Source: Promethearchaeota archaeon (GTDB lineage Archaea > Asgardarchaeota > Lokiarchaeia > Sigyniarchaeales > SOKP01). Taken from it: DNA of 64,000 nt. Within the stretch, counting starts at the first letter, position 1, and the number at the start of each line of letters is the position of its first letter. The notes below the pieces were generated by a model. The model was not told where the DNA came from. It made no database searches and worked only from the letters and a program-made list of their open reading frames with translations. The translations under genes and the position numbers were made by a program. Below are positions 24,093 through 40,553 of this stretch, in pieces. The DNA lies in NCBI GenBank assembly GCA_048938025.1, contig JBHLMP010000005.1, positions 1 to 64,000 of the forward strand, given 5' to 3'.

Positions 24093-25319
24093 TTATGATA
24101 ACGCTTGATTTAACAACTCCATTAAATCAATCATTTTAATATCAGAATTTAGCTCTTTTATTGCATCATATAGATTCCTATAACAAAAAGGGCAAATACT
24201 AACAAGATATTGTGCCCCTGTGTCTTCAGCTTCTTTCACTCTAGATTTCGCAATTTCTAATGATAGTCTGGGGAAACCTTTTTTAACTCCTCCCCCAGCA
24301 CCACAGCATTTGGTATTTTCTTTAATGGTTTTCATTTCGACTAAGTTTACGATTTTCCTTAGAATTTCTCTCGGTTCTTCATAAAGAGGATTAAATCCTT
24401 CCTTAATTCCAATATTTCGTCCTGTATGGCAAGGATCATGATAAGTTGCTGTTATGCCTAAATGATTTAACTTAATATCTTGTTTGATTGTAATTTTATG
24501 GATAAATTCAATAGAATGAAGAACTTCAATTCCTAAATCTTTCAAATAATCAATGTAATCAATTTTTAAAGTTCGATAACACCCTGCACAACTAGTTATT
24601 ATTGTTTTTACACCACTTTTTTTAAATAATTCATAATTTTTTGTAGCAACGGAGTTAAAAGCATTAAGATCCCCTGTTCTTTTCGCTACACTTCCACAAC
24701 AAACTTCAAATTCTCCATATACATTAAAATCAATATCCAATTTTTTGAGAACTTTTGCGGTATTAATAGCTACAGCCTGAATTTCTGGAGTTAACGCGGC
24801 AGTACACCCCACAAAATAAAGAATATCTGCCTTCTCTTTAGCAGCATCTTTAATTTTGAAATCTAACTTTTCTAACCAATCCCTCTTCTGTTTGTTATCT
24901 CTTTCATATGGATTTAAAAGTTCAACCATCGCTTTATTCATTGGTATATGTGCCTCCAAACCACATCCAGCATCTATTAATTCCGCTCTTAACGCCTCAT
25001 AAATAGTTGCATTATCCATATCATATGCACATGTTTCAGCACAAGCATTACACGTTGGACATTGGTACATTACTTCACCTAAATCTTTACTTAATATGAG
25101 CCTCCCTTGCCATATTGATCGTATGATCTGCATTTTTCCTCTTCCAAAAAAAGCTTCAAAACCAGACGTGTGATCTCTTGCCACACAGACACCCCACTTT
25201 TCTGGTTCTGAAGTATAGTCAGTTGCTTCTCTACAATCTCCACAACTAATACATTGTAAAATTATATCTCCTAATTTATTTAAGTGCTTGTATTTTTCTT
25301 TTGGTTTGAATTCAGTCAT
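24093..25319 (-). CDS. Fe-S oxidoreductase with CCG domains (GlcF/HdrD-like)
   Basis: CISCGDC, CPTCNACAETC, EVCCG, YHDPCH, CCGAGGG, CPFC. Confidence 0.88.
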   Translation of the reverse strand: MTEFKPKEKYKHLNKLGDIILQCISCGDCREATDYTSEPEKWGVCVARDHTSGFEAFFGRGKMQIIRSIWQGRLILSKDLGEVMYQCPTCNACAETCAYDMDNATIYEALRAELIDAGCGLEAHIPMNKAMVELLNPYERDNKQKRDWLEKLDFKIKDAAKEKADILYFVGCTAALTPEIQAVAINTAKVLKKLDIDFNVYGEFEVCCGSVAKRTGDLNAFNSVATKNYELFKKSGVKTIITSCAGCYRTLKIDYIDYLKDLGIEVLHSIEFIHKITIKQDIKLNHLGITATYHDPCHTGRNIGIKEGFNPLYEEPREILRKIVNLVEMKTIKENTKCCGAGGGVKKGFPRLSLEIAKSRVKEAEDTGAQYLVSICPFCYRNLYDAIKELNSDIKMIDLMELLNQALS

Positions 25320-25328
25320 TTTTCACAG

Positions 25329-26858: not shown

Positions 26859-26967
26859 TTCTCTTTACATTTTTCAAATTTAATAATAATACAAATGAAT
26901 TTGTGAATTAATAAAATTTTACTTAATGTTTTCATTTTTTAAATTAATAAGAAGGAGGAATATCAAA

Positions 26968-27414
26968 ATGAAAACCTTAAGAGATTCAATAGAGATAAAT
27001 ACTAAACCCGAAAAAATTTTTCAATGGTTAAAAAATTTGGATAATAATTACAAAAAATGGCATAAAGATCATGTTAATTCTATTAAATTAACTGCCACAA
27101 GGGAATTAGAAATAGGAGATGTTTTTTGTTATGAAGAATATCTGCATGGGGAATTGCATAAGCTAAAGTTAAAGCTCACTAATGTTGAAGAAAATAGAGT
27201 TATTGAATTTAAGACTTTATTTCCTGCCTCTTTGATTTGTCCAAAGGGATCATTCTTAATAGAGCCTAAAAATGATAATTCCATTTTTACAGCAACTCTA
27301 ACCTTTAGAATGGGTAATATCTTCTCAAAATTTGCTAAATCTCGTGTAGAAGCTATTAAAAAACACATGAAAGAAGAAGGAGAAAACTTGAAAAGATTAT
27401 TAGAAACTGAATAA
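26968..27414 (+). CDS. SRPBCC (START-like) family protein
   Basis: SIEINTKPEKIFQWL, C-terminal HMKEEGENLKRLLE; ATG after AGGAGG. Confidence 0.75.
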   Translation: MKTLRDSIEINTKPEKIFQWLKNLDNNYKKWHKDHVNSIKLTATRELEIGDVFCYEEYLHGELHKLKLKLTNVEENRVIEFKTLFPASLICPKGSFLIEPKNDNSIFTATLTFRMGNIFSKFAKSRVEAIKKHMKEEGENLKRLLETE

Positions 27415-27477
27415 TAATTTTTTATTTATATGAATAAATCAGAAATTATTCAATTATATTTTTATTTAAAAAGAAAA

Positions 27478-28695
27478 TTATGGAAAATAAGCAGTAGGTT
27501 TCTTTTCTTCTGGAAACTTATTTACGTAACATTGAAGGGGAAAATTGCTTGGTATAGCAGCAAGACATCGATTACAAGAAATACATGCTACCTTATCTTG
27601 CTTCTCTTCCTTAAAATTTTTTACAAGTAAAGGTTCCCTGATAAAAGGACGTGCCATGGATATTAAATCAATATACTTTTTTTCTATTATTTCTTCCATG
27701 AAAGATTTATGTCTTAAACCTCCCACCAAAATTAGGGGGATATCTCCAATTATAGGTTTAATCATCTTTGCAGCTTCAAGATTATATCCTTCATCAATAT
27801 TATATTTTCCTACCATATCTTGATATATCCCTTCTACCATTGCTTTCATATAACCTGGAACAGTTTGTACAATTTCTTGTACTGGAATGTCTCCCCTACA
27901 CATATTGAATATTGAGTAAGTTGCTGAACCACAACTTATTTCTATAGCATCAATTCCTAGTTTTACTAACCACTCAGAATATTTTGCTGCCATTGATGGA
28001 GTTATACCTTCTTTTGGAGTATAATCATTGGTATTTAATTTTATCAAAAGTGGTGTGTCTGCTGGTAAAATTTTTTTGGTTTTAGTTATTATTTCCTTCA
28101 AGTATCGAAACCTTTTTTCATCAGAACCACCCCAATCATCTTGCCTGCGATTATAAAAAGGAGATAAAAATTGATTGATTAAATATCCATGAGCAGCATG
28201 TAATTGAACCGCATCTGCACCAGCTTCAACTGCACGTCTTGTAGCGATGATAAAAGCTTCTATAGATTCTTGAATATCTTCTTCAGTCATTTCTCTTGAA
28301 TAATCCATTGAAATAGGATTTATTATATCTCCAGAGGGTCCCATAGGAGTTGTTTCTATTAATCTACTAAATGTTTGCAACCCAGCGTGTACTATCTGAA
28401 ATGCAACCTTCCCTTCTTTTTCATGTATGGCATCAACAATCTTTTTCAGGCCAGGAATTAAGTCATCCTTATATATTCCTGTTTGATGTTTATATGCTTG
28501 GCCTAAAGGATGAATATACATATATCCAGGAATAATTAATCCAATTTCTCCCTTAGCAAGGGTTCTGAAGAATTTTATAAGCTCACCAGTTACTTCGCCA
28601 TCTTCTTTTGCTAGATTTTCTATTGTGGCTGACCGCACAAATCTATTATTAACTTCCATTTGTCCAATTTTCATTGGTTCGAATAAAATAGATAT
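27478..28695 (-). CDS. NADH:flavin oxidoreductase (old yellow enzyme family); probable ATA start
   Basis: NRFVRSAT, QIVHAG, QLHAAHGYL..QFLSP..N.R.D.WGG, ARPFIREP, CISCNRC; upstream in-frame ATA gives the family-typical (M)SILFEPMKIG. Confidence 0.88.
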   Translation of the reverse strand: MSILFEPMKIGQMEVNNRFVRSATIENLAKEDGEVTGELIKFFRTLAKGEIGLIIPGYMYIHPLGQAYKHQTGIYKDDLIPGLKKIVDAIHEKEGKVAFQIVHAGLQTFSRLIETTPMGPSGDIINPISMDYSREMTEEDIQESIEAFIIATRRAVEAGADAVQLHAAHGYLINQFLSPFYNRRQDDWGGSDEKRFRYLKEIITKTKKILPADTPLLIKLNTNDYTPKEGITPSMAAKYSEWLVKLGIDAIEISCGSATYSIFNMCRGDIPVQEIVQTVPGYMKAMVEGIYQDMVGKYNIDEGYNLEAAKMIKPIIGDIPLILVGGLRHKSFMEEIIEKKYIDLISMARPFIREPLLVKNFKEEKQDKVACISCNRCLAAIPSNFPLQCYVNKFPEEKKPTAYFP

Positions 28696-28834: not shown

Positions 28835-29176
28835 CTACATCCAGGATACTATTTTCGGCGTATCTATTAGAATGTCTACTAGTTCTTTATAATCTATTCC
28901 CTCAATTTTATTCCGTAAATTCATTGGATCTAAACCTCGAGCTATAATATCAGGAATCATTGCATATATGGTTATAGGCAAGTTTAATAATTCTACTAAG
29001 GATGGTGGAATTTTACTTTTTTTTGAGGTGCCTAGAACCCCGTCATGAATGAAAACAAGAATTATATTTATATATGTTTTGGATTGTACTTTTAAAATTT
29101 TAAGGAGATTGCCCAATTTATAAACAAACCTTATACTAAAACCATACAAATAAACAATAGAATCATTTTCCACCAT
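28835..29176 (-). CDS. dsrH: DsrH/TusB-like sulfur relay subunit
   Basis: IHDGV, YAMIPDIIARGL, IDYKELVDIL...VSW; third gene of an E-F-H operon. Confidence 0.75.
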   Translation of the reverse strand: MVENDSIVYLYGFSIRFVYKLGNLLKILKVQSKTYINIILVFIHDGVLGTSKKSKIPPSLVELLNLPITIYAMIPDIIARGLDPMNLRNKIEGIDYKELVDILIDTPKIVSWM

Positions 29177-29196
29177 AATTAATCTACCTTCTAAAC

Positions 29197-29565
29197 TTAA
29201 TATCTAAAACACATATCTGCTTCCATGATAAGGTTAGAAATCTCACTAACGTTAACTATTTTCAAATTATCGTATTGAATTAAATCTGAGTGAACCATTC
29301 CTGCAACTTTGAGAGCTTCATCTAGAACATATATCTCTATGTCAGAAAAATCTATTAATCTCATAATGTCTGCATAACTATCAATATTTAAAACCTCGGG
29401 ATTTAAATTTCTGTTCAAAAAGTAAATAGCATCACCCATTAAAATTACCTTAGATTTTTCAATATCTCCTACAGCTAAGATACCAGTAGCCATACGAATA
29501 GATTCGATTACGGAATTTTTTCCAATTGGAGAATCTTCACAAATAATTACAATTGACTTTACCAT
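29197..29565 (-). CDS. dsrF: DsrF/TusC-like sulfur relay subunit
   Basis: SPIG..SVIESIRMA, LMGDAIYFL, IYVLDEAL, LIMEAD. Confidence 0.75.
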   Translation of the reverse strand: MVKSIVIICEDSPIGKNSVIESIRMATGILAVGDIEKSKVILMGDAIYFLNRNLNPEVLNIDSYADIMRLIDFSDIEIYVLDEALKVAGMVHSDLIQYDNLKIVNVSEISNLIMEADMCFRY

Positions 29566-29569
29566 CGCT

Positions 29570-29938
29570 TTAACCCCCAGAACCAAAAAAAATTATTTTA
29601 TCAGATCTTGCAATCAAATCAGAAAGTCCTCCTAGGCCTTCTTGGCATGCTTCTTGAATAAATTCAGATTTCTTAATTCCTGTAAAGCTTATCCAAGTAC
29701 TGCATGCCGTAAGTTTAGCGTTATACTTTTTACAAAAATTATTAAGACGTTCTGATAAATTTCGAGTAGAAGTACCTTTAATTGATCGCTCTTTAATAGC
29801 ATGCACTCCACTTCCATATAGAAAGATACCTAAAATCTGATGACCTTTTTGTATAATAGCCTCACCTAAATTGATTAATGTATCTATAGCTTCATATTTA
29901 TAAGGCTCTGCACATATAATGAATGAAAATGTAACCAT
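29570..29938 (-). CDS. dsrE: DsrE/TusD-like sulfurtransferase subunit
   Basis: PY, GIFLYGSGV, conserved Cys in LTACST, GLGGLSDLIARSDKIIFF. Confidence 0.8.
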   Translation of the reverse strand: MVTFSFIICAEPYKYEAIDTLINLGEAIIQKGHQILGIFLYGSGVHAIKERSIKGTSTRNLSERLNNFCKKYNAKLTACSTWISFTGIKKSEFIQEACQEGLGGLSDLIARSDKIIFFGSGG

Positions 29939-30047
29939 CTTAGCGTTTTCTCTATTTCGACTAATTTATTTAAAATATTATAAATATTTGATATAATACA
30001 ATAATTAATGATAAATATTCTTAAATTTTAAATAATTAAAATTTAAT

Positions 30048-30458
30048 ATGCCAAAAACATTTCCATTGAATATTAAAGGATTTAATCCATTTGGGGATTT
30101 AATTGGTTTGAATTTTACACAATTCGAGAAAGGATATTCTCAATGTGTTTTGGAAGCTAATGAAAAGTTATTTAATCCACATAAAGTATTACATGGTGGT
30201 GTAATTTACTCAATGGCAGACACTGGTATGGGAGCCGCACTTTTTTTACATTTAGAAAAAAACGAATTATGCGCTACTATAGAAATCAAAATTATCTATT
30301 TTAAATCAATTAAATCTGGAAGTGTTACATGTAATACAAAAGTGATTCACGTGGGTAGAAAAATTGCCACATTAGAATCTGAAATTTTAAACAATAACCA
30401 ACTTGTGGCTAAGGCAATTGGAACATATTCCATCTTTAAAATCAAAAATAAACCTTAA
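30048..30458 (+). CDS. PaaI family (hotdog-fold) thioesterase
   Basis: NPHKVLHGGVIYSMADT, TIEIKI.YF. Confidence 0.9.
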   Translation: MPKTFPLNIKGFNPFGDLIGLNFTQFEKGYSQCVLEANEKLFNPHKVLHGGVIYSMADTGMGAALFLHLEKNELCATIEIKIIYFKSIKSGSVTCNTKVIHVGRKIATLESEILNNNQLVAKAIGTYSIFKIKNKP

Positions 30459-30477
30459 ATTATGAAAAAAAATTAAA

Positions 30478-30846
30478 TTAAAACCATTGAGTTGCATCTG
30501 CTTCTAAAACTAAATCATTTAGAGTCGCAGCACCCACGATTTTTACACCTGGAATCAAATCTACTTTTTCCCAACCCAGCATTCTCTTTGATGCCTCACA
30601 TACTAAGATTTCAATACCAGATTCCAGTGTTTGATCAATCATCTCTTTCACAGTTGGAAAATTACCTAATTTTATTCTATCTGCCTCTCCTGGTTTTAAT
30701 ATTCTTAATCCTGTTCCTAAATAATATACCGTAGCTTTAAGATTCATAGCCTTAGCTGTCTGTGCTAACACTAATGGAGAATATTGACGTTCGGGATCGT
30801 CACTTGTTTGTACATACAAAATATATTTTTCTTCGATTTTACTCAA
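30478..30846 (-). CDS. DsrE family protein (stand-alone)
   Basis: PLVLAQTA, YYLGTG, GIEILVCEAS, VGAATL. Confidence 0.8.
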   Translation of the reverse strand: MSKIEEKYILYVQTSDDPERQYSPLVLAQTAKAMNLKATVYYLGTGLRILKPGEADRIKLGNFPTVKEMIDQTLESGIEILVCEASKRMLGWEKVDLIPGVKIVGAATLNDLVLEADATQWF

Positions 30847-30888
30847 CCTCCTCTTTTTATTATTTGTTTTAACTTCCTATATAATATG

Positions 30889-31146
30889 CTAAATTAAAAC
30901 TTCAAATATACTAACTCTTTTGTCTTTGTCATCTTTAAATTTCTTTATAAACCTAATTTGTTGAAGATTTTTTAAAGAGTATGCTACTGTGCGTTTTGGT
31001 AGGAGTGTTTTACTCAAAATTTGTTTTTGATTCAATGGTCCCCTTTGTTTTAATATATATAATATGAATTTACATGAGGGGGATAATGAGAATAAATCCA
31101 TTTTTTCTTCATAAGTATTAACAAAATATTTATCTTCAACAATCAT
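30889..31146 (-). CDS. small MarR-like winged-helix regulator
   Basis: LSPSCKFILYIL..GPL.QK.I...TLLPKRTVAYSL..L, DKR. Confidence 0.8.
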   Translation of the reverse strand: MIVEDKYFVNTYEEKMDLFSLSPSCKFILYILKQRGPLNQKQILSKTLLPKRTVAYSLKNLQQIRFIKKFKDDKDKRVSIFEVLI

Positions 31147-31291
31147 AAAAATGTGCTTAATACGATTTGAAAGATCTAAATTATTACTTAATTCATAAAA
31201 TGGAATAATCTTATTAAATATTTTGGTTAACTGGTAAATTTAAACGAACAATTCAGTTTTAGTTTCAAAATAAAGCTAGATTTTATATTAA

Positions 31292-31306
31292 GTTTCAATT
31301 TGAAAC
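31292..31306. promoter_or_regulatory. palindrome GTTTCA-ATT-TGAAAC
   Basis: Perfect 6-bp arms upstream of the small MarR-like gene; partial copy GTTTCAAAATAAAGC at 31262-31276. Confidence 0.4.
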
Positions 31307-31334
31307 GAATAAAATCTTATAAAAAATAAATCTC

Positions 31335-31898
31335 TTAAAAATTCCCACATCCGTCACATTTACCATCCAAGAAAGCCTCACAATCTCTACAGATATTTCC
31401 ACAATTAGATTCTCGACTTTCTTTACTAAAGAGGTTAAGTGGAAGAAATTTTGGTGTTTCTATATTAGAAATAAATATAATTTCAGAGTGTAATATCCCC
31501 TTTTTATTGGTAGGACCACAATAATTTATATACCTGTGTAAAACATCTATATTTTGTCCTACAATTCCCATAACTAAATTGTATTGACCCGTAATCTGTG
31601 CTAACAAAAAGACTCTTGGACATTCAGAATAAGCTTTAATGATGTTCTTTACTTCATCATAATTTTTCATTTCTAGAAGAATCAAGCAAGCCCGATAATT
31701 TAAAGCATTTATATTAATATTACCTTGTACTTTTAGTATCTCTGATTCCTCTAATTTTACAATCCTTTTTCTAACTCCAGCGTGGCTCATTATCTCTTGA
31801 TCAGGTTTAACTACTTTTTCACCTATACTGATTAAACTTTCACGACCTTTTGTAAATAAAGCATTAATGATTTGTTTATCGATATTATCTAATAGCAT
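31335..31898 (-). CDS. Lrp/AsnC family regulator with Cys-rich C-terminal tail
   Basis: LDNIDKQII, SHAGVRKRIVKLEE, CPRV...ITGQYNL; tail CGNICRDC...CDGC; ATG at 31898 lies about 24 nt from a TATA-like ttttataaaa. Confidence 0.85.
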   Translation of the reverse strand: MLLDNIDKQIINALFTKGRESLISIGEKVVKPDQEIMSHAGVRKRIVKLEESEILKVQGNININALNYRACLILLEMKNYDEVKNIIKAYSECPRVFLLAQITGQYNLVMGIVGQNIDVLHRYINYCGPTNKKGILHSEIIFISNIETPKFLPLNLFSKESRESNCGNICRDCEAFLDGKCDGCGNF

Positions 31899-31965
31899 AA
31901 TAATAAAAAAAGAAATCCTTTTATAAAAAAGTACTAAAATTGCTTTCATCATCAATTTTTTTAGG

Positions 31966-31978
31966 TGCAAATTTTGCC
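31966..31978. promoter_or_regulatory. Lrp-type operator copy 1 (TGCAAATTTTGCC)
   Basis: Near-palindrome upstream of the Lrp gene; one of five related sites. Confidence 0.6.
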
Positions 31979-32232
31979 TTTAACTATATAAATAATACTT
32001 GGAAGAATTTTCTTAAAGAATTTAGATTCAATTAAAATATTGAATTCGCCCTTAATAAAACTGTGGTTTTATTATTCCCTCTAATTTTGATTAAAAGATT
32101 GAATAAATCTCCTTTTCTCTTTCTTTTAAAACCTATTTCAATTAATCTTTTAAGACTTTATTAACTTCTTTTAAGAGAAAATGAACTCAATAAAGCAAAA
32201 TATAATAGCTTTTCTATATATTTTTAATTAGG

Positions 32233-32245
32233 TGCAATAATTGCA
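32233..32245. promoter_or_regulatory. Lrp-type operator copy 2 (TGCAATAATTGCA)
   Basis: Palindrome just upstream of TATA-like tattaaata (32251) of the Cys-rich membrane gene. Confidence 0.7.
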
Positions 32246-32318
32246 TATACTATTAAATAGATTTTTGTTAGAGTGACTCTATACACTTCAAAAACTAAAT
32301 ATTTAACAAGAAGGTAAG

Positions 32319-32921
32319 TTGACTAGTCAAATGGAAGAGAGATCTAATGAAACTTCTTTTGAAACTAAAGATTCAAAACCCAAAGCTAAATTGTATAAAA
32401 AATATTCATTTTTGAGAGTATCTATTTATGAAATTTCAACAATTCTCCATTATTTAATAGGAGGATTGGGATTAATTATAGGGTATGCATTTTTATGGTT
32501 GGGCTACCTATTTGGTTTAATTTATATTATTTTTGCATTTCTACAAATGTACATTCTTATGCCATTAACTGTGTGCCCAAATTGTGTGTATTACAGAATG
32601 GAAGGTTCACGCTGTGTATCAGGCTTAAATAAGATCTCACGAAAAATAGCAAAGGAAGGAAAACCTGAAGTTTTTCCAAAACGAGCAGAGGGAGTATTTT
32701 GCTACAATAATATATATATGGCTGCTTTATTTTTCCCAATCGTGGCATTAATCCCTGCTTTAATCTTAAATTTTTCTCTATTGTTGTTATTAATATTTTT
32801 GATAGTTTTGGGCTTGCTGGTCTTTCGTTTTTTTGTAATTTTTCCTAAGATAGCATGTTTGCACTGTAACGCAAAATTTACATGCCCTATCGGTGAAAAA
32901 ATTGGCGTTCGAGATAAATGA
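32319..32921 (+). CDS. 4-TM membrane protein with two Cys clusters, hypothetical
   Basis: TM pairs each followed by CPNC..C and CLHC...C; ATG at 32331 is an alternative start. Confidence 0.75.
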   Translation: MTSQMEERSNETSFETKDSKPKAKLYKKYSFLRVSIYEISTILHYLIGGLGLIIGYAFLWLGYLFGLIYIIFAFLQMYILMPLTVCPNCVYYRMEGSRCVSGLNKISRKIAKEGKPEVFPKRAEGVFCYNNIYMAALFFPIVALIPALILNFSLLLLLIFLIVLGLLVFRFFVIFPKIACLHCNAKFTCPIGEKIGVRDK

Positions 32922-33007
32922 TGCGAACAATATTTAATAATCACCAATAGAGATTTCACTCTTAATAAAAATCAGAATATAATTATTTCCTTCCTCTCTT
33001 ATTCTTT

Positions 33008-33958
33008 CTAATCCATGGAATAATGTTCTGGTTCTGGATGTAGTTTATTAATAAACCTATAATTAAAAATATCTTGTATTTTTAGATTTTTTTTTATATA
33101 TCCCAAATTATAAAGAGTCTTTACGAATTTCATTGTTGCTCTTATGTAGCCCTCTGAGAGAGCAATACAATATTTTGGGGATATTTTCAGAACAGCCTCA
33201 GCATAATTTTTATCAATTATTTTAAATGATTTTACAATTTTCTCTGCTGCGACTGCTGGTGATTCTCGAAGCAGATTTGATGCATTTTTATGATGGGTGA
33301 GAAATTTTAAAATTAATTCAGGATTGTTTTGAATGAGTTTTTTATGGACAAATATTCCATAGCTAGGATTATTTGGCCATAGCTCTTTAGCTTCGATAAT
33401 TAAATGAGATTCTAAAATTGTTGATGTAAATACAGCTAACGCAGGAGTTCCAACACCTGCTTCTAAAAGACCTTCTCTCATATCCAAAGCTATGAATTCT
33501 GCTTGCTCATAGTTCTTGATCTGAATTTCCTCTAACAAGTTGTATTTTTCTAAATAAAAATTTAATATAACATCATGAATAGAACCTTTACTCGGAACTC
33601 CTATTGTTTTTCCTTTAAACTGGGAAAAGACCCTATTTAAATCATTATCTAATTGTTGTTGTGTGTTGTATACTCTTTTAGCAACTACAATTGTTCCCTC
33701 AACATGTCCTCCAGCGACACATATGATTGGAACACTTTCAGCAATTCCTATTATAGCAGGAGGTAAACCCATATAACCGATATCTAGTTTATTTTCCTTG
33801 AATGCTTTAACCATAGCAGGTCCGGTTCCAAAAAGAACCCAATTTATATCTGCCTTTAAATCTTTGTTTAAATCTTCAGATTCCATCAAAATATAATTAG
33901 TATGATATGCAGTTGAAAGGTGTCCTATATTTAATCTATTTTTTTTAATATAAATCAC
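33008..33958 (-). CDS. SsuA/NMT1-THI5-like substrate-binding-fold protein without signal peptide
   Basis: F.TGPAM..AF...LDIGYMGLPPAI, GGHVEG, KGKTIGVP..GSIHD; no N-terminal hydrophobic anchor. Confidence 0.75.
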   Translation of the reverse strand: MIYIKKNRLNIGHLSTAYHTNYILMESEDLNKDLKADINWVLFGTGPAMVKAFKENKLDIGYMGLPPAIIGIAESVPIICVAGGHVEGTIVVAKRVYNTQQQLDNDLNRVFSQFKGKTIGVPSKGSIHDVILNFYLEKYNLLEEIQIKNYEQAEFIALDMREGLLEAGVGTPALAVFTSTILESHLIIEAKELWPNNPSYGIFVHKKLIQNNPELILKFLTHHKNASNLLRESPAVAAEKIVKSFKIIDKNYAEAVLKISPKYCIALSEGYIRATMKFVKTLYNLGYIKKNLKIQDIFNYRFINKLHPEPEHYSMD

Positions 33959-33979
33959 CTTTTTGAGTACCTGATATTC

Positions 33980-33992
33980 TGCAAAAATTGCA
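33980..33992. promoter_or_regulatory. Lrp-type operator copy 3 (TGCAAAAATTGCA)
   Basis: Palindrome in the divergent intergenic region between the SBP-like and SAMP genes. Confidence 0.7.
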
Positions 33993-34082
33993 CTAATATT
34001 TAACTATTATAAACTAAATAAATAAATGCTATTTTTATTGACATAATATAGACACTTGTTATAAATTAAAATTAAAACACTA

Positions 34083-34382
34083 ATGATTTCCGCATTGATA
34101 AATATAAAAATCTTATTCTTTTCTTTATTGGCAGATAAATTTGGTAAAGATGAATTCACTTTAAATGTTGAACATGTTATAACTTTAAGAGATTTGCTAA
34201 ATCAACTGAGTTCTTTACTTGGAAGAGAATTTGAGGAGATGAATATTGTATCTGAGGATAAATTAAATAAATACGTAATTATAGGTTTAAATGGGAGAGA
34301 TATTCGACAATTTAATGGTTTAGATACTATTATTAAAGATAATGATGTGCTATCTTTTCTACCAGCTATTGCAGGTGGATAA
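34083..34382 (+). CDS. MoaD/ThiS/SAMP ubiquitin-like sulfur carrier
   Basis: Beta-grasp pattern, LNGRDI...GLDT.IKDND..SFLPAIAGG ending in Gly-Gly. Confidence 0.9.
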   Translation: MISALINIKILFFSLLADKFGKDEFTLNVEHVITLRDLLNQLSSLLGREFEEMNIVSEDKLNKYVIIGLNGRDIRQFNGLDTIIKDNDVLSFLPAIAGG

Positions 34383-34406
34383 TGAACTTTTTTTTTTATA
34401 TTTAGA

Positions 34407-34419
34407 TGAAAAAATTGCA
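34407..34419. promoter_or_regulatory. Lrp-type operator copy 4 (TGAAAAAATTGCA)
   Basis: One mismatch to copy 3; upstream of cysE. Confidence 0.6.
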
Positions 34420-34483
34420 CTTAATTATTTATTTCACTAAATTATTTTCTCCAAGATAGAATATTAAAAATGGATAACTGACA

Positions 34484-35323
34484 ATGGAAGATTTTTTAAA
34501 CTGTCTAAATTGTGGCAAGACTTTAGGGGATAAAGAGAGAAATCATTATAATTTTTGTGCTGAATGTATTTTAAAATTAGACTTTCGATTAGAAGAGCTA
34601 AATCGTGAAGAGATAGATCAAAATTTACAAAAAATTTTAAATTTCTTTGTCTCTGATGTTAGTGCTGCCTTTAATAAGGATCCAGCTGCTCAATCTCTAT
34701 TGGAAGTTTTAACAAGTTATCCGGGAATTAAAGCAATTTTGTTACATCGTATTGCTCATTTTTTCTGGAAAATTAAAATGCCATTTGTGCCAAGGTATCT
34801 TTCAGAAATTACCCGGGAACTTACTGGAATAGAAATTCATCCTGGCGCTGAAATTGGAAAGGATTTTTTTATTGATCATGGAGGCGGTGTTGTTATTGGA
34901 GAGACTGCAAAGATTGGTGATAATGTAACTATTTATCAAGGCGTGGTCTTAGGAGGAACAATGACAGATCCAATCAAGAGACACCCAACCTTAGGAAACA
35001 ATATTGTTGTCGGCACAGGAGCAAAGTTATTAGGACCAATAACAATTGGAGACAATGTGAGAATTGGAGCAAATTCTGTAGTTGTTCAAGATATACCTCC
35101 TAATTCGGTAGTAGTCGGTGTTCCTGGAAAAATTATATCTCGTGATGGAAAAAAAATTAAAAAAATCGATCTTTCACATGGAGATTTACCCGATCCAATG
35201 TCAATAACTCTTTCTTCAATAAATCGAAGAATAGAATTCCTTGAAAAGCATTTAAAAATTAAATCGGATATAAAAAGAAATGATATTGAAATATATTTTG
35301 GTATCAATGGAGGAGGTATTTAA
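34484..35323 (+). CDS. cysE: serine O-acetyltransferase with N-terminal zinc-finger-like extension
   Basis: DPAA, YPG..A...HRIAH, TGIEIHPGAEIG, FIDHG.GVVIGET, KRHPTLG, IGANSVV, DLPDP; N-terminal CLNC...CAEC. Confidence 0.92.
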   Translation: MEDFLNCLNCGKTLGDKERNHYNFCAECILKLDFRLEELNREEIDQNLQKILNFFVSDVSAAFNKDPAAQSLLEVLTSYPGIKAILLHRIAHFFWKIKMPFVPRYLSEITRELTGIEIHPGAEIGKDFFIDHGGGVVIGETAKIGDNVTIYQGVVLGGTMTDPIKRHPTLGNNIVVGTGAKLLGPITIGDNVRIGANSVVVQDIPPNSVVVGVPGKIISRDGKKIKKIDLSHGDLPDPMSITLSSINRRIEFLEKHLKIKSDIKRNDIEIYFGINGGGI

Positions 35324-35354
35324 TTAATACAATATAGAGAGGAGGTGAAAAGAC

Positions 35355-36284
35355 TTGGGAAGAATATTTAATAATATTATTGAAACCATTGGGAATACAC
35401 CGTTAGTAAGACTTAATAGGATTACTGAAAGAATTGAACCAAATATTTTTGTAAAAATTGAGGGTTTCAACCCTGGCGCAAGTGTTAAGGACCGAATTTG
35501 TATGTCGATGATTGATGCTGCTGAAAAAGCGAAAATCATTAAAAAGAATACAATAATTGTCGAACCCACCTCAGGTAATACAGGTATTGGTTTAGCATTA
35601 GTCTGTGCTGCTAAAGGGTACAAATTAATTCTTACAATGCCAGATAGTATGACAATTGAAAGAAGAAAAATATTAAAAGCATATGGTGCGGAATTAGTAT
35701 TAACTCCTGCTGATAAAGGAATGAAGGGAGCCATTGAAAAGGCTGAAGATTTAGCGAAAGACAACGATAAAGTTTTTATTCCTCAACAGTTTAAAAATGA
35801 AGCAAATCCTGAAATTCATCGTAAAACAACCGCAGAAGAGATATATAATGATTTAGATGGAAAAATTGACGGATTTGTGTCAGGAATAGGCACAGGTGGA
35901 ACTATAACAGGAGTAGGGGAAATACTTAAACAGAGAATTGGCAATCATGTGAAAATATATGCTGTAGAACCAAAAGATTCTCCTGTATTGTCAGGAGGTG
36001 AACCAGGATCACATAAAATCCAAGGAATTGGTGCCGGATTTGTACCTGATGTATTGAATACTGAAATTTATGATGATGTAATTCAAGTTAATTATGAGGA
36101 TGCTGTACAAACATCAAGAAAATTAGCTAAATTAGAAGGGATTTTTGTAGGGATTTCTGCGGGAGCAGCAGCGTGGGCAGGAATTTACATAGTTTCAAAA
36201 GAATTTAAAAAAGGAGATAATTTAGTTATAATTTTACCAGATACAGGAGAAAGATATTTATCTACAGATCTATTTGAAACATGA
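35355..36284 (+). CDS. cysK: cysteine synthase A (O-acetylserine sulfhydrylase)
   Basis: IGNTPLV, NPGASVKDR (PLP Lys), PTSGNTG, GTGGT, HKIQGIG, PDTGERYLST. Confidence 0.95.
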   Translation: MGRIFNNIIETIGNTPLVRLNRITERIEPNIFVKIEGFNPGASVKDRICMSMIDAAEKAKIIKKNTIIVEPTSGNTGIGLALVCAAKGYKLILTMPDSMTIERRKILKAYGAELVLTPADKGMKGAIEKAEDLAKDNDKVFIPQQFKNEANPEIHRKTTAEEIYNDLDGKIDGFVSGIGTGGTITGVGEILKQRIGNHVKIYAVEPKDSPVLSGGEPGSHKIQGIGAGFVPDVLNTEIYDDVIQVNYEDAVQTSRKLAKLEGIFVGISAGAAAWAGIYIVSKEFKKGDNLVIILPDTGERYLSTDLFET

Positions 36285-36299
36285 TTTAAATTTTGATTG

Positions 36300-36569
36300 T
36301 TAAAGTTTCTTTAGTTTCATAAGCCAAACATCTTTTTCTGAATCTAATTCCTTTATTTCTAATAATTCCGCTAAAGATTGTCGTTTACAATTTTCAGGAA
36401 TATTTTTAAGAGCAGCAGGAAAGTCTAAAAGAACCTCTAAAATATCCCCTCTATCAAGTTCTTCAAGTTTTAATTTTGTGTAAACAAATGTCATTGGACA
36501 TACTTTCCCCCTTATGTCTAAATACTTCATAATTTCTTTTTCAGATCCTCTTAAAATGTTTATTGACAA
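36300..36569 (-). CDS. tusA: TusA family sulfurtransferase
   Basis: LDIRGKVCPMTFVYTKLKLEEL..GDILEVLLD. Confidence 0.85.
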   Translation of the reverse strand: MSINILRGSEKEIMKYLDIRGKVCPMTFVYTKLKLEELDRGDILEVLLDFPAALKNIPENCKRQSLAELLEIKELDSEKDVWLMKLKKL

Positions 36570-37366
36570 ACGTCATCAATCCCATATTGTATAATTTCAA
36601 CTATATCTTTTGCATCATCCCCACATGCGATGCATCTTTCATTCCTATGAAGATCTATAAAATTAAAGGTATTTCTTAAAAGATCTATATATAAGATTTT
36701 ATTTTTTATTAAATCCCCGATACCTAGAATATATTTTAATGCTTCATTTGCTTCTATGCAGCCTAAAATTCCTGGTACAAATCCGATTACTCCAGCTTCG
36801 GAACATGACATTCCAGTTGGTCCTTCAATTATATCACCAAAAATGCATCGATAGCACGCAGTTTTTTCTTCAGGAATTACTGTCATAATTTGTCCATGAA
36901 ATCTTAAAACACCTGCTATTGTAAATGGTATTTTTAAATAAATGCATGTATCATTAACTAGCATCTTAGTTGGAAAATTATCAGACCCTTCTATAACAAA
37001 ATCGGAGTCCTTAAGAATTTCTTTAGCATTCTTAGCTGTAATTTTTTCATTTATGATTTCAATAATGGAATCAGGATTTAGCATATTTAACTTTTCAATT
37101 GCACTTTCTGTTTTCTTCCTATCGATATCTTTTGTGAAATGTAGAATCTGTCTATGCAAATTAGATGGCTCTACTTTATCATAGTCAATTAGTTTTAAAT
37201 GCCCAATTCCGGCTGCTGTTAGATAATATGCAACAGGGGATCCAAGAGCTCCTAGACCAACTAAAGAGATTTTTGACTTTAATAATTTCTTTTGACCTAT
37301 ACCCCCAACTTCTTTTAGGACGATTTGACGAGAATATCTCTTAATTTGCTCTTCAGTTAAATTCAT
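36560..37366 (-). CDS. moeB: MoeB/ThiF/UbaA E1-like adenylyltransferase
   Basis: RYSRQ, GQKKL, GLGALGS, D.D.VE.SNLHRQ, DNF, CYRC, SCSEAG (catalytic Cys), CIAC. Confidence 0.9.
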   Translation of the reverse strand: MNLTEEQIKRYSRQIVLKEVGGIGQKKLLKSKISLVGLGALGSPVAYYLTAAGIGHLKLIDYDKVEPSNLHRQILHFTKDIDRKKTESAIEKLNMLNPDSIIEIINEKITAKNAKEILKDSDFVIEGSDNFPTKMLVNDTCIYLKIPFTIAGVLRFHGQIMTVIPEEKTACYRCIFGDIIEGPTGMSCSEAGVIGFVPGILGCIEANEALKYILGIGDLIKNKILYIDLLRNTFNFIDLHRNERCIACGDDAKDIVEIIQYGIDDVCQ

Positions 37367-37427
37367 TTTTTACCATTTAAATTACAATAACTAACATAGA
37401 AATATCTTTAGTTTATATAAAATAAGA

Positions 37428-37440
37428 TGCAAAAATTGCA
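37428..37440. promoter_or_regulatory. Lrp-type operator copy 5 (TGCAAAAATTGCA)
   Basis: Extends to ATGCAAAAATTGCAT; just upstream of TATA-like tttatataa (37412-37420) of moeB-tusA. Confidence 0.7.
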
Positions 37441-37470: not shown

Positions 37471-38016
37471 TTATTTACGAATTAATATTCCAATTTTTCC
37501 ACCTATTTTTTGAATAGAATTACCCTCAGCACCAATCAATACTTCTTCTTTAATTAAATTGATGATAGCTCGAGTTATCATGCTTAACGGATATTGTTGT
37601 ATTTCTTTAATGCCAATTAGCTCATCAATAGTTAAAGCTTCTCCAGGCACTATCATTGAAATTATTGCTCTTTTTACGTGATCTAAATTACTCACATTTT
37701 CTATTAATTCACGTGTTCCTCCCTTTTTGCTACTTTGTTTAAGTTCAGTTAAGGTAGATGTTAATAATTTAACTTGTTCTTCAAGTTTAGTAATACGTAT
37801 TTCTAATTCTCTTTTGGAACTTCTATTTATTTTACTTGGTTCTTCCTTTTCAGCTAAGAATTTAATTACAAGTTTTTCAAGGTGTTCTTTTGGAATATTA
37901 GCTTTTTTTATTTGTTGTATTTTTTCTGTTTTAGTGCTACTTTTCTTTAAGTTAATATTACATTCTTTTGCTAATTTTTCCAGGTAGTGCACTGTGAGAT
38001 CATTTAGATCTGCCAT
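37471..38016 (-). CDS. hypothetical protein: SAP/Rho-N-like helix, coiled coil, winged-helix-like C-terminus
   Basis: LNDLTV..L..LAK...I....TK.E.I; heptad region; LTIDEL....I..L...L. Confidence 0.6.
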   Translation of the reverse strand: MADLNDLTVHYLEKLAKECNINLKKSSTKTEKIQQIKKANIPKEHLEKLVIKFLAEKEEPSKINRSSKRELEIRITKLEEQVKLLTSTLTELKQSSKKGGTRELIENVSNLDHVKRAIISMIVPGEALTIDELIGIKEIQQYPLSMITRAIINLIKEEVLIGAEGNSIQKIGGKIGILIRK

Positions 38017-38144
38017 ATCTAACCTCAATTGAAGAAATTTTTATGTAGTTTTAAAATCTTTTAAGAGGAATATTAATTAATTAAAAATTGATACAGCAAT
38101 TATTAAAAATATCATTATTAACCTCAAAATCAGAGTTGATTTAA

Positions 38145-38684: not shown

Positions 38685-40553
38685 ATGGAATTTGGTTATA
38701 CAGGGAATATCCTTAGAGTCAATTTATCTAAAGGAGATATATTTATTGAACATCCTGATGAAATTTTTTACCGCCGATATATCGGAGGTGAAGGTTTCGT
38801 AGCATACTATCTTTTAAAAGAAGTCCTGACAGGAATTGATCCATTAAGTTCTGAAAATAAATTGATTTTTGCTACAGGTCCATTAACTGGATTTGCAATT
38901 CCGGGAACAGGTAGAAATAGTGTAGGTGCAAAGTCTCCTTTAACAGGAGGATTTGGTGAAGCGGAAGTTGGTGGTCATTGGGGAGCCGAGTTAAAGCACG
39001 CAGGATTTGATGCAATAATAGTAGAGGGAAAAGCAAAAAAGCCTGTCTATTTATGGATTAAAGATGGAGAAATAGAAATAAAGGATGCAACTCATCTCTG
39101 GGGTAAAATTACTGGTGAAGCCGAGGTAATTATTAAAGAAGAATTAGGTGATAAATTTATCCGCGTCGCTCAAATTGGCCCTGGAGGAGAACGTTTAGTT
39201 CGTTATGCATGTGTTATTAATGATTTAAGAAATGCTGCAGGGCGTGGTGGAATGGGTGCTGTAATGGGATCTAAAAATCTAAAAGCTGTGGCTGTTAGAG
39301 GTCATAAAAGACTTGAAGTCAATAATAAAGAGAAATTGAGAGGACTAATAAAAGAGTACCATGATGTAGCGTACAAACCATATGCAAGTTATTTTGAGCA
39401 TGGTACAGGAGGGGGAATAATGGAGATGTTTGCGGAATCCGGAAACCTTCCAACAAGAAATTTTAGGGATGGTGATTTTTTGGGGGCAAAAGCTTTAGAT
39501 CCCAGTGTTATGAAGGAAGTAATTAACCTTAAAATGGATGCTTGCTATGCGTGTTCACTTCGGTGTAAAAAAGTTGTACAAATTGGAGAACCTTGGAATG
39601 TTGATCCAATATATGGAGGTCCTGAATATGAATCTATAGCTGCTTTTGGATCGAATTGTGGAGTAGATGATATAAAAGCTGTTTGTAAAGCAAATGAGCT
39701 CTGTAACAAATATTCATTAGATACAATATCTACTGGCGTTTCGATCGGATTTGGGATGGAATGTTATGAGAATGGAATATTGACCGATAAAGACACTAAT
39801 GGACTATCATTAAATTTTGGAAATAAAGAAGCAATGCTAGAGATGGTAAAAATGATTGCTAACCGAGAAGGTTTAGGAGATATTTTAGCTGATGGTGTCA
39901 AAAGAGCAGCTGAAAAAATACAAAATGGAGCAAAAGACTATGCTATGCATGTTAAAGGACAGGAGATTCCTATGCATGAACCACGTTTGAAGCAAGGAAT
40001 GGGTGTTGGTTATTCTGTTTCACCAACTGGTGCTGAACATATGGCAAATATTCATGATACTTCTTTTACTAGTGAAAGGGCAATGAGTCCTCATAATGCT
40101 ATAGGTTTATTAGAACCTCTTGAAACGAACGATTTGAGTGCGAAAAAAATTCGTATTTTAACTTATTATAGTAATTGGCAAAATGCATCTAATGCTATAT
40201 TAGTATGTTATTTTTTACCATGGGACTATAATGATATACCAGAAATTCTTAAAGCTGTAACTGGTTGGAATATAAATACATGGGAGATTATGAAATTAGG
40301 AGAACGGATTACAACTATGGCTAGAGCATTTAATATTAGGGAGGGTTTTTCTAAAGATGATGACTGGCTTCCTAAACGATTTTTCCAACCTACTACTTCA
40401 GGTGCTTTATCTAAAACTGCAATAAATCCCGATGAATTCAAGAATGCTCGATCTACCTATTACAGAATGATGGGCTGGGATGATAATGGAATTCCAACTA
40501 AAGCAAAACTAGAGGAATTAGATATCGAGTGGGTTTCTAAAATGCATCCATAA
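38685..40553 (+). CDS. aor: aldehyde ferredoxin oxidoreductase (tungsten/molybdopterin AOR family)
   Basis: ILRVNLS, KSPLTG, GRGGMGAVMGSKNLKA, CYACSLRC, GPEYE, DTIS, YY..MGWD. Confidence 0.93.
   Translation: MEFGYTGNILRVNLSKGDIFIEHPDEIFYRRYIGGEGFVAYYLLKEVLTGIDPLSSENKLIFATGPLTGFAIPGTGRNSVGAKSPLTGGFGEAEVGGHWGAELKHAGFDAIIVEGKAKKPVYLWIKDGEIEIKDATHLWGKITGEAEVIIKEELGDKFIRVAQIGPGGERLVRYACVINDLRNAAGRGGMGAVMGSKNLKAVAVRGHKRLEVNNKEKLRGLIKEYHDVAYKPYASYFEHGTGGGIMEMFAESGNLPTRNFRDGDFLGAKALDPSVMKEVINLKMDACYACSLRCKKVVQIGEPWNVDPIYGGPEYESIAAFGSNCGVDDIKAVCKANELCNKYSLDTISTGVSIGFGMECYENGILTDKDTNGLSLNFGNKEAMLEMVKMIANREGLGDILADGVKRAAEKIQNGAKDYAMHVKGQEIPMHEPRLKQGMGVGYSVSPTGAEHMANIHDTSFTSERAMSPHNAIGLLEPLETNDLSAKKIRILTYYSNWQNASNAILVCYFLPWDYNDIPEILKAVTGWNINTWEIMKLGERITTMARAFNIREGFSKDDDWLPKRFFQPTTSGALSKTAINPDEFKNARSTYYRMMGWDDNGIPTKAKLEELDIEWVSKMHP

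Follow-up and report, generated by a model that had tools for sequence, protein, structure and literature searches.

Genes and operator sites of the island

The window studied here is a 64,000-nucleotide stretch from a Promethearchaeota archaeon (contig C52, positions 1-64000, of a 3.52-Mb assembly labelled G000, completeness 96.7%, contamination 5.1%). It carries an island of sulfur-transfer and cysteine genes, at the centre of which lie two divergent genes: one for a ubiquitin-like sulfur carrier (Ubl; 34083..34382, plus strand) with the C-terminus ...LPAIAGG, and one for an NMT1-like protein (33008..33958, minus strand), a cytoplasmic protein of the TauA/SsuA fold. Profile scans with Pfam, which covered 70 of the 71 open reading frames (ORFs) of the window (the ORF at 63075-63998 was left out), and with NCBIfam matched Ubl to PF02597 (47.6 bits) and to the archaeal MoaD model moaD_arch (TIGR01687, 58.4 bits, cut-off 49.5), and the NMT1-like protein to NMT1_2/SsuA-like families (PF13379, 63.9 bits; SsuA_fam 98.4 bits, below the cut-off of 163.5). 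On the same strand as Ubl follow genes for the serine O-acetyltransferase CysE (34484..35323, plus strand; TIGR01172, 228.1 bits, cut-off 210.65), which has an N-terminal CxxC...CxxC extension and ends in ...GGGI, and for the O-acetylserine sulfhydrylase CysK (35355..36284, plus strand; TIGR01139, 455.3 bits, cut-off 350.95). The sulfur-transfer protein TusA (36300..36569, minus strand; PF01206, 65.8 bits) is encoded with a 10-nt overlap with the gene for E1, a MoeB/UbaA-type adenylyltransferase of 268 aa (36560..37366, minus strand; PF00899, 245.9 bits) that stays below the cut-offs of the MoeB and UbaA models of NCBIfam.

Several of these genes are preceded by an operator-like palindrome, TGCAA-N3-TTGCA. 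Allowing at most one mismatch, nine sites were found in the window as compared with 3.36 +/- 1.94 expected, and none of 100 shuffles reached nine. Five of the nine lie 62-91 bp upstream of module genes, namely an AsnC-like regulator (counted from Met25, see below), a Cys-rich membrane protein, the divergent NMT1-like/Ubl promoter, CysE and E1. The site TGCAAAAATTGCA occurs twice, at 33980..33992 in the divergent promoter region, 22 bp from the NMT1-like start, and at 37428..37440, 62 bp upstream of E1. Upstream of CysE, TGAAAAAATTGCA (34407..34419, one mismatch) ends 65 bp before the gene, and TGCAATAATTGCA (32233..32245) ends 74 bp upstream of the start of the membrane protein. The fifth site, TGCAAATTTTGCC (31966..31978, one mismatch), lies upstream of the AsnC-like regulator. 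The annotated TTG start of this regulator is probably wrong, and its probable true start is Met25 (31898), which matches the start of the copy on contig C58 (see below); with this start the operator sits about 70 bp upstream of the gene rather than over its start.

In the whole genome exact sites number 12, four of which are intergenic, and all four belong to the two copies of the module, that of the window and that of C58; of the 21 intergenic sites with at most one mismatch, these copies account for eight, one of which precedes the C58 CysE. A genome scan found no site upstream of comDE (C41), MMP16 (C84), the TusA gene on C28 or the desulfurases. Among relatives we surveyed 52 Asgard-type loci and counted a site if it lay no more than 200 bp upstream of a gene. 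Such sites precede E1 in 23 of 44 cases, CysE in 11/15 and CysK in 2/15, the background being 139 sites in 826 kb (0.17 per kb). As judged by these sites, CysE-CysK is wired into a module-specific regulon that it shares with the carrier genes. CysE probably forms a separate transcription unit, since it has an operator of its own. The shared operator is the strongest support for a coupling between the two gene sets; a flow of sulfur from Ubl to CysK does not follow from it.

The remaining genes of the island encode putative sulfur carriers, regulators and accessory proteins. Three DsrEFH-type subunits are encoded on the minus strand: a DsrH/TusB-like protein with zero cysteines (28835..29176; PF04077, 39.1 bits; TIGR03011, 42.4 bits, below the cut-off of 49.2), a DsrF/TusC-like protein (29197..29586; PF02635, 40.1 bits), whose gene overlaps that of DsrE by 17 nt, and a DsrE/TusD-like protein with a single cysteine (29570..29938; PF02635, 43.3 bits; TIGR03012, 43.9 bits, below the cut-off of 89.25). 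A single-domain DsrE2-like protein (30478..30846, minus strand; PF13686, 55 bits) is a candidate persulfide carrier. The two regulators are a short winged-helix protein of the MarR type (30889..31146, minus strand; PF01047, 33 bits) and the Lrp/AsnC-like protein (31335..31970, minus strand), which has a C-terminal Cys-rich tail, a weak HTH_AsnC match (E 2.9e-4) and Lrp-family NCBIfam hits below cut-off. Accessory genes encode a hotdog-fold thioesterase (30048..30458, plus strand; PF03061, 60.3 bits), which had been missed in the first-pass annotation, and the Cys-rich membrane protein (32319..32921, plus strand), which belongs to no Pfam or NCBIfam family. A conserved 185-aa protein, likewise without a Pfam or NCBIfam family, is encoded upstream of E1-TusA (37471..38028, minus strand); like the thioesterase and the five operator copies, it is absent from the first-pass annotation. 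A gene for an aldehyde:ferredoxin oxidoreductase (AOR; 38685..40553, plus strand) lies 1.3 kb from the module. Upstream of the island (24093-28674) are genes for a FAD-binding oxidase (PF01565), a CCG-domain HdrD-like protein and an Old Yellow Enzyme-type flavoprotein.

The gene inventory of the first-pass annotation held throughout: the genes it had named are intact ORFs at these coordinates and most have family support, the AsnC-like hits being below cut-offs and the membrane protein lacking a family. The same is true of its statement that the window carries no desulfurase, JAMM protease or sulfate-reduction gene: none of these, and no sulfite-reduction gene either, was found by Pfam in the 70 ORFs scanned.

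Constant and optional parts of the module

Relatives were collected by scanning GTDB species genomes with the NMT1-like protein, which gave 477 relatives, of which 80 loci were kept and annotated by phmmer with the window proteins. Neighbourhood counts refer to those 31 Asgard-type loci whose flanking sequence reaches 6 kb or more on each side. Ubl lies within 6 kb of the NMT1-like gene in 30 of these loci and E1+TusA near it in 27, while the regulators are found near the module in about half of them (AsnC-like 16/31, MarR 15/31). Less frequent are the 185-aa gene (10/31, in the same position upstream of E1), DsrEFH (9/31), the DsrE2-like gene (8/31) and CysE (8/31), and the rarest neighbours are AOR (within 6 kb in 3/31), the hotdog thioesterase (2/31) and the membrane protein (2/31). 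A raw count of 12/31 for CysK was inflated by PALP enzymes and was set aside in favour of that for CysE; the CysK-like hits 5-8 kb upstream in several loci are PALP enzymes of the threonine/serine-dehydratase type and not CysK. The complete gene set occurs at a single locus (L028), whose NMT1-like protein is 93% identical to that of the window. Thus, the conservation that the first-pass annotation had proposed to look for applies to the core of Ubl, NMT1-like protein and E1-TusA, which is widespread, but not to the exact gene combination, which is rare (1/31). The constant core of the module is Ubl divergent from the NMT1-like gene, plus E1-TusA, and CysE-CysK is a recurrent, dispensable recruit.

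The history of this recruitment was traced on a maximum-likelihood tree of NMT1-like proteins with 54 rows, 39 of which form the Asgard clade, scoring CysE/CysK hits above 150 bits within 10 kb. Such hits accompany 18 of the 54 rows, all inside the Asgard clade, and their distribution takes at least eight changes on the tree, five of them forced by well-supported branches (shuffled mean 15.3). In the other 21 of the 39 Asgard-clade rows CysE/CysK is absent within 10 kb and Ubl still adjoins the NMT1-like gene. CysE-CysK has been gained or lost at least five to eight times. A methanobacterial locus (L081, Methanobacteriota) was left off the tree on account of its short NMT1-like ORF; there a CysE-CysK pair lies about 4 kb from the Ubl-NMT1-like pair. 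In Promethearchaeota 9R3_44 (L048), CysK stands beside Ubl, about 1.6 kb from the NMT1-like gene, and a CysE ORF was not detected.

Homologues of the NMT1-like protein number 2258 at E <= 1e-5; the best 120 of these are all at least 63% identical, and the organism names among them are those of Promethearchaeota and other Asgard lineages only. These names support an Asgard origin of the DNA, as do the eukaryote-like ubiquitin clusters of the genome described below. When clustered at 50% the family is small, with 35 representatives at E <= 1e-30, and full-length members are aligned from the first residues.

A second copy of the module occupies the 7.3-kb contig C58 of the source assembly. Here the DsrE2-like, MarR, AsnC-like and NMT1-like genes lie on one strand and Ubl and CysE on the opposite strand, CysE being truncated by the contig end. 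Identity to the window proteins is 85% for DsrE2-like, 72% for MarR, 76% for AsnC-like, 68% for NMT1-like, 40% for Ubl and 86% for CysE. In the tree the C58 NMT1-like protein is sister to that of locus L052, not to the window copy, and of the 48 positive genomes none but the source genome has two copies. The C58 copy may be a paralogue or may come from a co-binned relative; in both cases the gene order that it shows counts as an independent instance.

The genome as a whole holds eight ThiS/MoaD-family genes, seven of them GG-ended, and five E1 genes above the family cut-off. Its sole MoaE gene adjoins a MoaD gene of its own in a MoaA-MoaD-MoaE-MoeA-MoaB-type cluster on C56, a second MoeB-type E1 (44% identical to the window E1) is encoded on C33, and the three further E1 genes sit in ubiquitin-type clusters with E2 and JAB. 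Since the molybdenum cofactor (Moco) pair MoaD-MoaE and another MoeB-type E1 thus exist elsewhere, the window Ubl and E1 are extra copies and not the Moco pair; E1, the GG-ended carrier and TusA form a dedicated set. The ubiquitin-type clusters are eukaryote-like modules on C8 (L025:5517-8613; ubiquitin-E1-E2-JAB), C13 (L027:5354-7469; JAB-E1-E2) and C20 (L026:4890-6822; a 530-aa E1 with an E2 fragment). GG-ended ThiS/MoaD-type genes also adjoin AORs on C87 (L017:5998-8282), C6 (L022:1900-6222) and C23 (L023:2580-6258), and AOR-linked MoaD-like proteins are mentioned in Iyer 2006.

Nine Prok-JAB matches and nine matches to class V aminotransferases/desulfurases were found, all of them on contigs other than that of the window. 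Neither a sulfite reductase (NIR_SIR) nor a DsrC/TusE acceptor (PF04358) gave a match in this 96.7% complete genome. DsrE2-like copies with 85% identity are present on C58 and C28. The one on C28 lies at the contig end (L110:2576-4109), where it is the third DsrE2-like gene and follows genes for an MtbC-like methylamine-type corrinoid protein and then a second TusA, an arrangement that may link methyl-corrinoid metabolism with sulfur carriers.

The NMT1-like protein and its genomic company

The AlphaFold (AF2) model of the NMT1-like protein is of high quality (predicted local distance difference test, pLDDT, 93.5; predicted template modelling score, pTM, 0.91). Its nearest structures by Foldseek are the taurine-binding TauA (6ssy) and SsuA (3e4r/2x26), which binds alkanesulfonates, with template modelling (TM) scores of 0.75-0.80, followed by the enzymes Thi5 (TM 0.74) and DszB, and a profile search of the sequences of solved structures agreed in matching 6ssy and 2x26. 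An importer binding protein was ruled out by two missing features. The protein has no N-terminal export extension, as its fold starts at residue 9 and the alignment of close members begins at residue 2-10, the more distant hits of transporter type being longer at the N-terminus by 25-100 residues; and no ATP-binding cassette (ABC) permease or ATPase genes lie between positions 24 and 42 kb of the window. A Thi5-like role in thiamine synthesis was judged unlikely as well: the score with the Thi5/NMT1 family model is above cut-off (PF09084, 26.5 bits, cut-off 20.5), but TauA and SsuA match better than Thi5, and scans of the window ORFs and of 102 of the 148 ORFs in neighbourhoods detected no gene of thiamine synthesis. 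In a protein cluster atlas the protein matches only generic clusters named 'ABC transporter substrate-binding protein'.

An alignment of 50 NMT1-like rows shows C80, G83, G84, H85, G88, T171, P172, P198-G201, S260, Y263 and Y313 to be invariant, and H19, S126, H128, N197, H223 and C264 to be conserved in at least 90%. In 38 Ubl rows A97, G98 and G99 are invariant, the Asgard-type rows ending in ...PAIAGG. When Ubl and the NMT1-like protein were modelled together, the complex score was 0.71, as compared with 0.03 for the best of three controls. Of solved complexes 58 of 80 attain this mark and of mismatched pairs 2 of 110, figures that apply here only approximately, as the modelling used our own alignments. 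At least 98% of contacts are common to the runs, and the pLDDT of the partner is at least 81. The predicted interface includes Ubl residues 93-99 and residues 14-17, 42-46, 122, 126, 128 and 170-171 of the NMT1-like protein; the model thus supports binding and suggests that the Ubl tail docks in the cleft.

The genomic company of the family points to sulfonate metabolism. At five loci the NMT1-like gene adjoins cysteate synthase (cs; TIGR03844, 470-540 bits, cut-off 325) and a fused gene for the sulfopyruvate decarboxylase ComDE: L082 and L085 (Hydrothermarchaeales), L083 (Bathyarchaeia), L084 (Nitrospirota) and L092 (Hecatella). Conservation of the cleft contacts is 0.95 in Ubl-linked and 0.89 in cs-comDE-linked proteins (five rows), and the two groups share the majority residue at 93% of these positions; on the surface that would face the body of Ubl they share it at 38%, versus 54% elsewhere. 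No match to MMP16 or any other COG1900 protein was found in the five genomes with a cs-comDE-linked NMT1-like gene. According to Chadwick 2025 (PMC12068725), Methanosarcina acetivorans has an operon cs-comDE-MMP16, and MMP16 is the primary coenzyme M (CoM) synthase. In closed Asgard genomes the link recurs: in one (G023) the NMT1-like gene comes immediately after a fused comDE and Ubl is convergent, and in another (G012) comDE and the NMT1-like gene are 4 kb apart. In both, the divergent neighbour of comDE encodes a 390-aa multi-CBS-domain protein (L112:11451-12623 and L113:6064-7236), through which the sulfonate branch may be regulated in response to a ligand.

Co-occurrence was examined in 251 Asgard genomes, in 41 genomes of the Methanoperedens family and at 28 loci outside the core Asgard clade. 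A strong ComE is present in 41 of 48 Asgard genomes with an NMT1-like protein and in 23 of 203 without. Among the 64 ComE-positive Asgard genomes, those with MMP16 comprise 19 with and 14 without an NMT1-like protein, and those without MMP16 comprise 22 and 9, respectively. In three Asgard families with ComE and an NMT1-like protein MMP16 is rare or missing (f13, 0/19; f14, 0/3; f20, 1/6). Outside the core Asgard clade ComE occurs in 25/28 genomes, including 6/6 Nitrospirota, whereas MMP16 is above cut-off in 3/28 and present as fragments in a fourth. In the Methanoperedens sample 40 of 41 genomes have the NMT1-like protein and 39 have ComE, and none has MMP16 or any other COG1900 protein (E <= 1e-20); in one of them (G319) the NMT1-like and ComE genes are on one contig. 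The source genome itself encodes ComD (203 bits, cut-off 148) and ComE (242 bits, cut-off 221.5) at C41:1081-2134 (L108).

MMP16 is found in 57 of the 251 sampled Asgard genomes and in 44 of 54 in the family of the window. The source genome further carries an L-ASST-like COG1900 and ferredoxin pair on C9 (L115:1047-2917) and, on C20 (L109:4241-10112), a phosphonate biosynthesis cluster with phosphoenolpyruvate mutase, Fe-alcohol dehydrogenase, nucleotidyltransferase, phosphonopyruvate decarboxylase (437 bits, cut-off 312.5) and sugar epimerase.

Proposed fate of the carried sulfur

We give about even chances to the reading that the island is a thiocarboxylate system feeding a sulfonate-thiolating NMT1-like enzyme, possibly an alternative CoM synthase, with cysteine synthesis co-regulated. 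From the chemistry of the families concerned, TusA, perhaps fed by the optional DsrE2-like and DsrEFH carriers, would bring persulfide sulfur to E1, and E1 would adenylate the GG end of Ubl and thereby give the thiocarboxylate Ubl-COSH. Synteny and the complex model suggest that the Ubl tail then enters the cleft of the NMT1-like protein, which would be the true consumer of the carrier. As comparative genomics indicates, the sulfur may pass there to the carbonyl of a bound C2 sulfonate, in the way known from ThiG and BexX, and a reduction, possibly via C80 and C264, would yield the thiol. The best candidate substrate on the same comparative grounds is sulfoacetaldehyde made by ComDE, which would be turned into CoM or a relative of it, making the NMT1-like protein a putative non-orthologous counterpart of MMP16/ComF. 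CysE-CysK would be the ordinary cysteine pathway of the organism, which in some lineages, as the co-regulation supports, was drawn into the common operator regulon. Its probable role is to tie the carrier to the supply of cysteine, which would serve as a co-substrate or, by way of desulfurases with genes elsewhere, as the ultimate sulfur source, and not to receive sulfur from Ubl. Speculatively, a CysK that makes cysteate from O-acetylserine and sulfite might provide the front end that is missing; cysteate synthase was found in none of 37 genomes, CysE/CysK-linked and unlinked alike, a comparison that does not discriminate this stand-in idea.

A more specific proposal, which we put forward tentatively and with less than even confidence, is that the NMT1-like proteins are a new family of CoM synthases with a binding-protein fold. 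They would convert sulfoacetaldehyde into 2-mercaptoethanesulfonate, would be non-orthologous to MMP16/ComF and would be fed by Ubl in Asgard archaea; the same activity may be present in Methanoperedens (ANME-2d), some MMP16-lacking Methanosarcinales and Nitrospirota.

Several observations weigh against a role in CoM synthesis. The source genome has a bona fide MMP16 (491 bits, cut-off 364; C84, L116:1216-2505), next to which a second CoM synthase would be redundant, and 19 of the 64 ComE-positive Asgard genomes likewise carry both proteins. Methyl-coenzyme M reductase (MCR) was not found in the source genome, and a source of sulfopyruvate is missing there, neither cysteate synthase nor ComA having been found. 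A strong ComE is missing in 7/48 and in 8/37 module-bearing Asgard genomes (overlapping samples), so sulfoacetaldehyde is not a universal substrate; six of the latter eight genomes are those of DsrEFH-linked loci. Ubl is adjacent in none of the five cs-comDE-linked loci, and a GG-ended ORF lies within 3 kb in only one of four Methanoperedens loci. The use of Ubl is not family-wide, since the cs-comDE-linked and most Methanoperedens loci have no adjacent Ubl. In relatives the operator precedes Ubl in only 10/51 and the NMT1-like gene in only 8/50 cases. The nearest solved relatives of the NMT1-like protein are binding proteins and not enzymes. It should also be underlined that the genome counts include related, non-independent genomes and that many metagenome-assembled genomes are incomplete. 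As for the literature, Arshad 2015 credits a Methanoperedens-like genome with 'ComDEF', and the main text of Chadwick 2025 (PMC12068725) contains no mention of Methanoperedens or ANME. Among the best-ranked matches of our literature searches we found no link of a thiocarboxylate carrier or an NMT1/SsuA-fold protein to CoM, and neither a binding-protein-fold partner, a dedicated operator nor a ComDE link. Apart from the NMT1-like protein, the presence of ComDE and MMP16 in the source genome, in which MCR alpha was not found, implies a CoM-type thiol outside alkane metabolism.

An alternative that we consider unlikely is that the NMT1-like protein is not an enzyme at all and that it acts as a cytoplasmic sulfonate/thiol sensor or chaperone, which binds a small sulfonate and Ubl and thereby gates the carrier system. 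The closest solved structures, TauA and SsuA, are ligand-binding proteins, no cofactor domain is predicted, and the gene belongs to a regulon with two regulators, all of which would suit such a role. However, the invariant C80, G83, G84, H85, P198-G201, S260 and Y263, together with H128, N197 and C264 in at least 90%, persist across archaea and bacteria, and Thi5 and DszB demonstrate that enzymes of the same fold exist. Moreover, the NMT1-like gene takes the slot beside cs-comDE that MMP16 has in Methanosarcina, and it is near-universal in Methanoperedens, which lack MMP16 (0/41 sampled).

The first-pass annotation had proposed that the Ubl thiocarboxylate donates its sulfur to CysK, in a protein-bound sulfide route like that of CysO/CysM, fed by TusA and the DsrE proteins. 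The coupling of CysE/CysK to the carrier that this model implies was retained in part. Ubl, CysE and CysK follow one another on the same strand at distances of 101 and 31 bp, the C58 copy preserves the order of Ubl and then CysE, the linkage recurs in several arrangements on the tree (18/54 rows, at least eight changes, five of them forced), and the operator is common to CysE-CysK and the carrier genes. In addition, CysK gave a single tblastn hit and is the sole CysK found in a genome in which no sulfite reductase was found, and Iyer 2006 describes related sulfur-assimilation operons with Ubl, E1 and SirA. On the other hand, the constant neighbour of Ubl is the NMT1-like gene (30/31) and not CysK (CysE in 8/31), and the 21 Asgard-clade rows without CysE/CysK still have Ubl by the NMT1-like gene.

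The enzymes themselves do not support a CysM-like use of the thiocarboxylate either. CysK is canonical: it passes the CysK equivalog and fails the CysM model (TIGR01138, 288.2 bits, cut-off 394.2), and among solved structures it is closest to CysK enzymes, including CysK1 of Mycobacterium tuberculosis (2q3b), with no CysM-named entry among the best 60. In the ordinary cysteine synthase complex the C-terminal Ile of CysE docks in the active site of CysK, and the ...GGGI tail of the island CysE is of the type that plugs this site. A JAMM protease that could release cysteine was found neither in the cluster nor among the other window ORFs scanned, CysE is preceded by an operator of its own, and the complex model places the Ubl tail in the cleft of the NMT1-like protein. 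A transfer of sulfur from Ubl to CysK therefore seems to us improbable.

Least probable is a housekeeping role of the carrier genes in Moco or tungsten cofactor supply to AOR, in tRNA thiolation or in SAMP-type modification, the other genes of the sulfur-themed island being mere neighbours. In its favour, the Ubl score exceeds the cut-off of the archaeal MoaD model, E1 resembles MoeB and UbaA, AOR is close by, and the genome has several JAB proteases and eight ThiS-family genes, three of them adjoining AORs. But the routing of sulfur to the pterin cofactor of AOR, which had also been suggested, was not borne out, as the sole MoaE is paired with its own MoaD on C56, a second MoeB-type E1 is on C33, AOR lies within 6 kb in 3/31 loci, the operator is exclusive to the module, and the module is patchy (48/251 Asgard genomes), unlike universal housekeeping functions.

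A system that thiolates a sulfonate with the help of Ubl would operate in the manner of the known Ubl-thiocarboxylate pathways and differ from them in its acceptor. Ubl thiocarboxylate carriers are known to serve thiamine, Moco, tRNA, cysteine and methionine synthesis. In the thiocarboxylate-dependent cysteine synthesis of M. tuberculosis (CysO-CysM-MoeZ-Mec), as in the island, a GG-ended ThiS/MoaD-fold carrier and an E1 stand beside a pyridoxal phosphate-dependent sulfhydrylase, and protein-thiocarboxylate sulfur would be shared. The island differs in having a CysK-type sulfhydrylase with CysE and hence the O-acetylserine route; in a rhodanese-less E1 whose sole real domain is ThiF (MoeZ model 204.3 bits, below the cut-off of 647), with TusA adjacent instead; and in a TauA/SsuA-fold protein as the constant partner of the carrier, with no JAMM protease like Mec. 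The HcyS-HcyF-HcyD-MetY system of Wolinella is the experimental counterpart of another class of operons, in which Ubl, a rhodanese-less E1 and SirA/TusA are found with sulfur amino-acid genes, as in the island. This class is row 4e in Table 1 of Iyer, Burroughs and Aravind 2006, and the island differs from it by having no JAB peptidase, sulfate/sulfite reduction genes or O-acetylhomoserine sulfhydrylase. In addition it has the SsuA-fold protein, carriers of the DsrE family and an operator of its own.

With MMP16/ComF the NMT1-like protein shares the genomic role, flanking cs-comDE and co-occurring with ComE genome-wide; it differs in having no COG1900 domain (PF01837), in its class II binding-protein fold as opposed to COG1900 plus ferredoxin, and in its thiocarboxylate-carrier partner in Asgard archaea. 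ThiS-ThiF-ThiG and the 2-thiosugar enzyme BexX resemble the proposed system in that a Ubl thiocarboxylate delivers sulfur to a metabolite carbonyl in a dedicated enzyme, whereas the acceptor of the island is of another fold and is proposed to act on a C2 sulfonate aldehyde, which would require a two-electron reduction in addition. Compared with TauA/SsuA and the enzymes Thi5 and DszB, the fold is the same and the cleft is expected to bind a small anionic ligand, but the export extension and ABC partners are missing, Cys and His residues are invariant, and the Ubl tail is predicted in the cleft. TusA and the DsrE-family proteins, in the order DsrE-F-H, recall the TusA-DsrE2-DsrEFH-DsrC and TusA-TusBCD-TusE relays; here, however, the NCBIfam equivalogs of TusD and TusB (see above) and of TusC (34.2 bits, cut-off 94.15) all stay below cut-off, the genes are optional in relatives, no DsrC/TusE was found in the source genome, and E1/Ubl is the likely acceptor. 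The archaeal SAMP/UbaA pair is also distinct, as judged by the SAMP1 (44.4 bits, cut-off 60) and UbaA (254.3 bits, cut-off 450) models.

A carrier with a fixed cytoplasmic partner of binding-protein fold would be a new type of acceptor, and hundreds of genes annotated as 'ABC transporter substrate-binding protein' are probably misnamed. Chadwick 2025 (PMC12068725) raises the question of which non-orthologous route can lead to CoM without MMP16. If sulfoacetaldehyde is indeed thiolated by the NMT1-like protein, this would address that question and explain how an essential cofactor is made in the MMP16-lacking Methanoperedens (0/41 sampled). Ubiquitin-like systems are of special evolutionary interest in Asgard archaea, and in these closest archaeal relatives of eukaryotes the same reading, if true, would place a CoM-type thiol and a tightly regulated delivery of protein-bound sulfur in non-methanogenic organisms.

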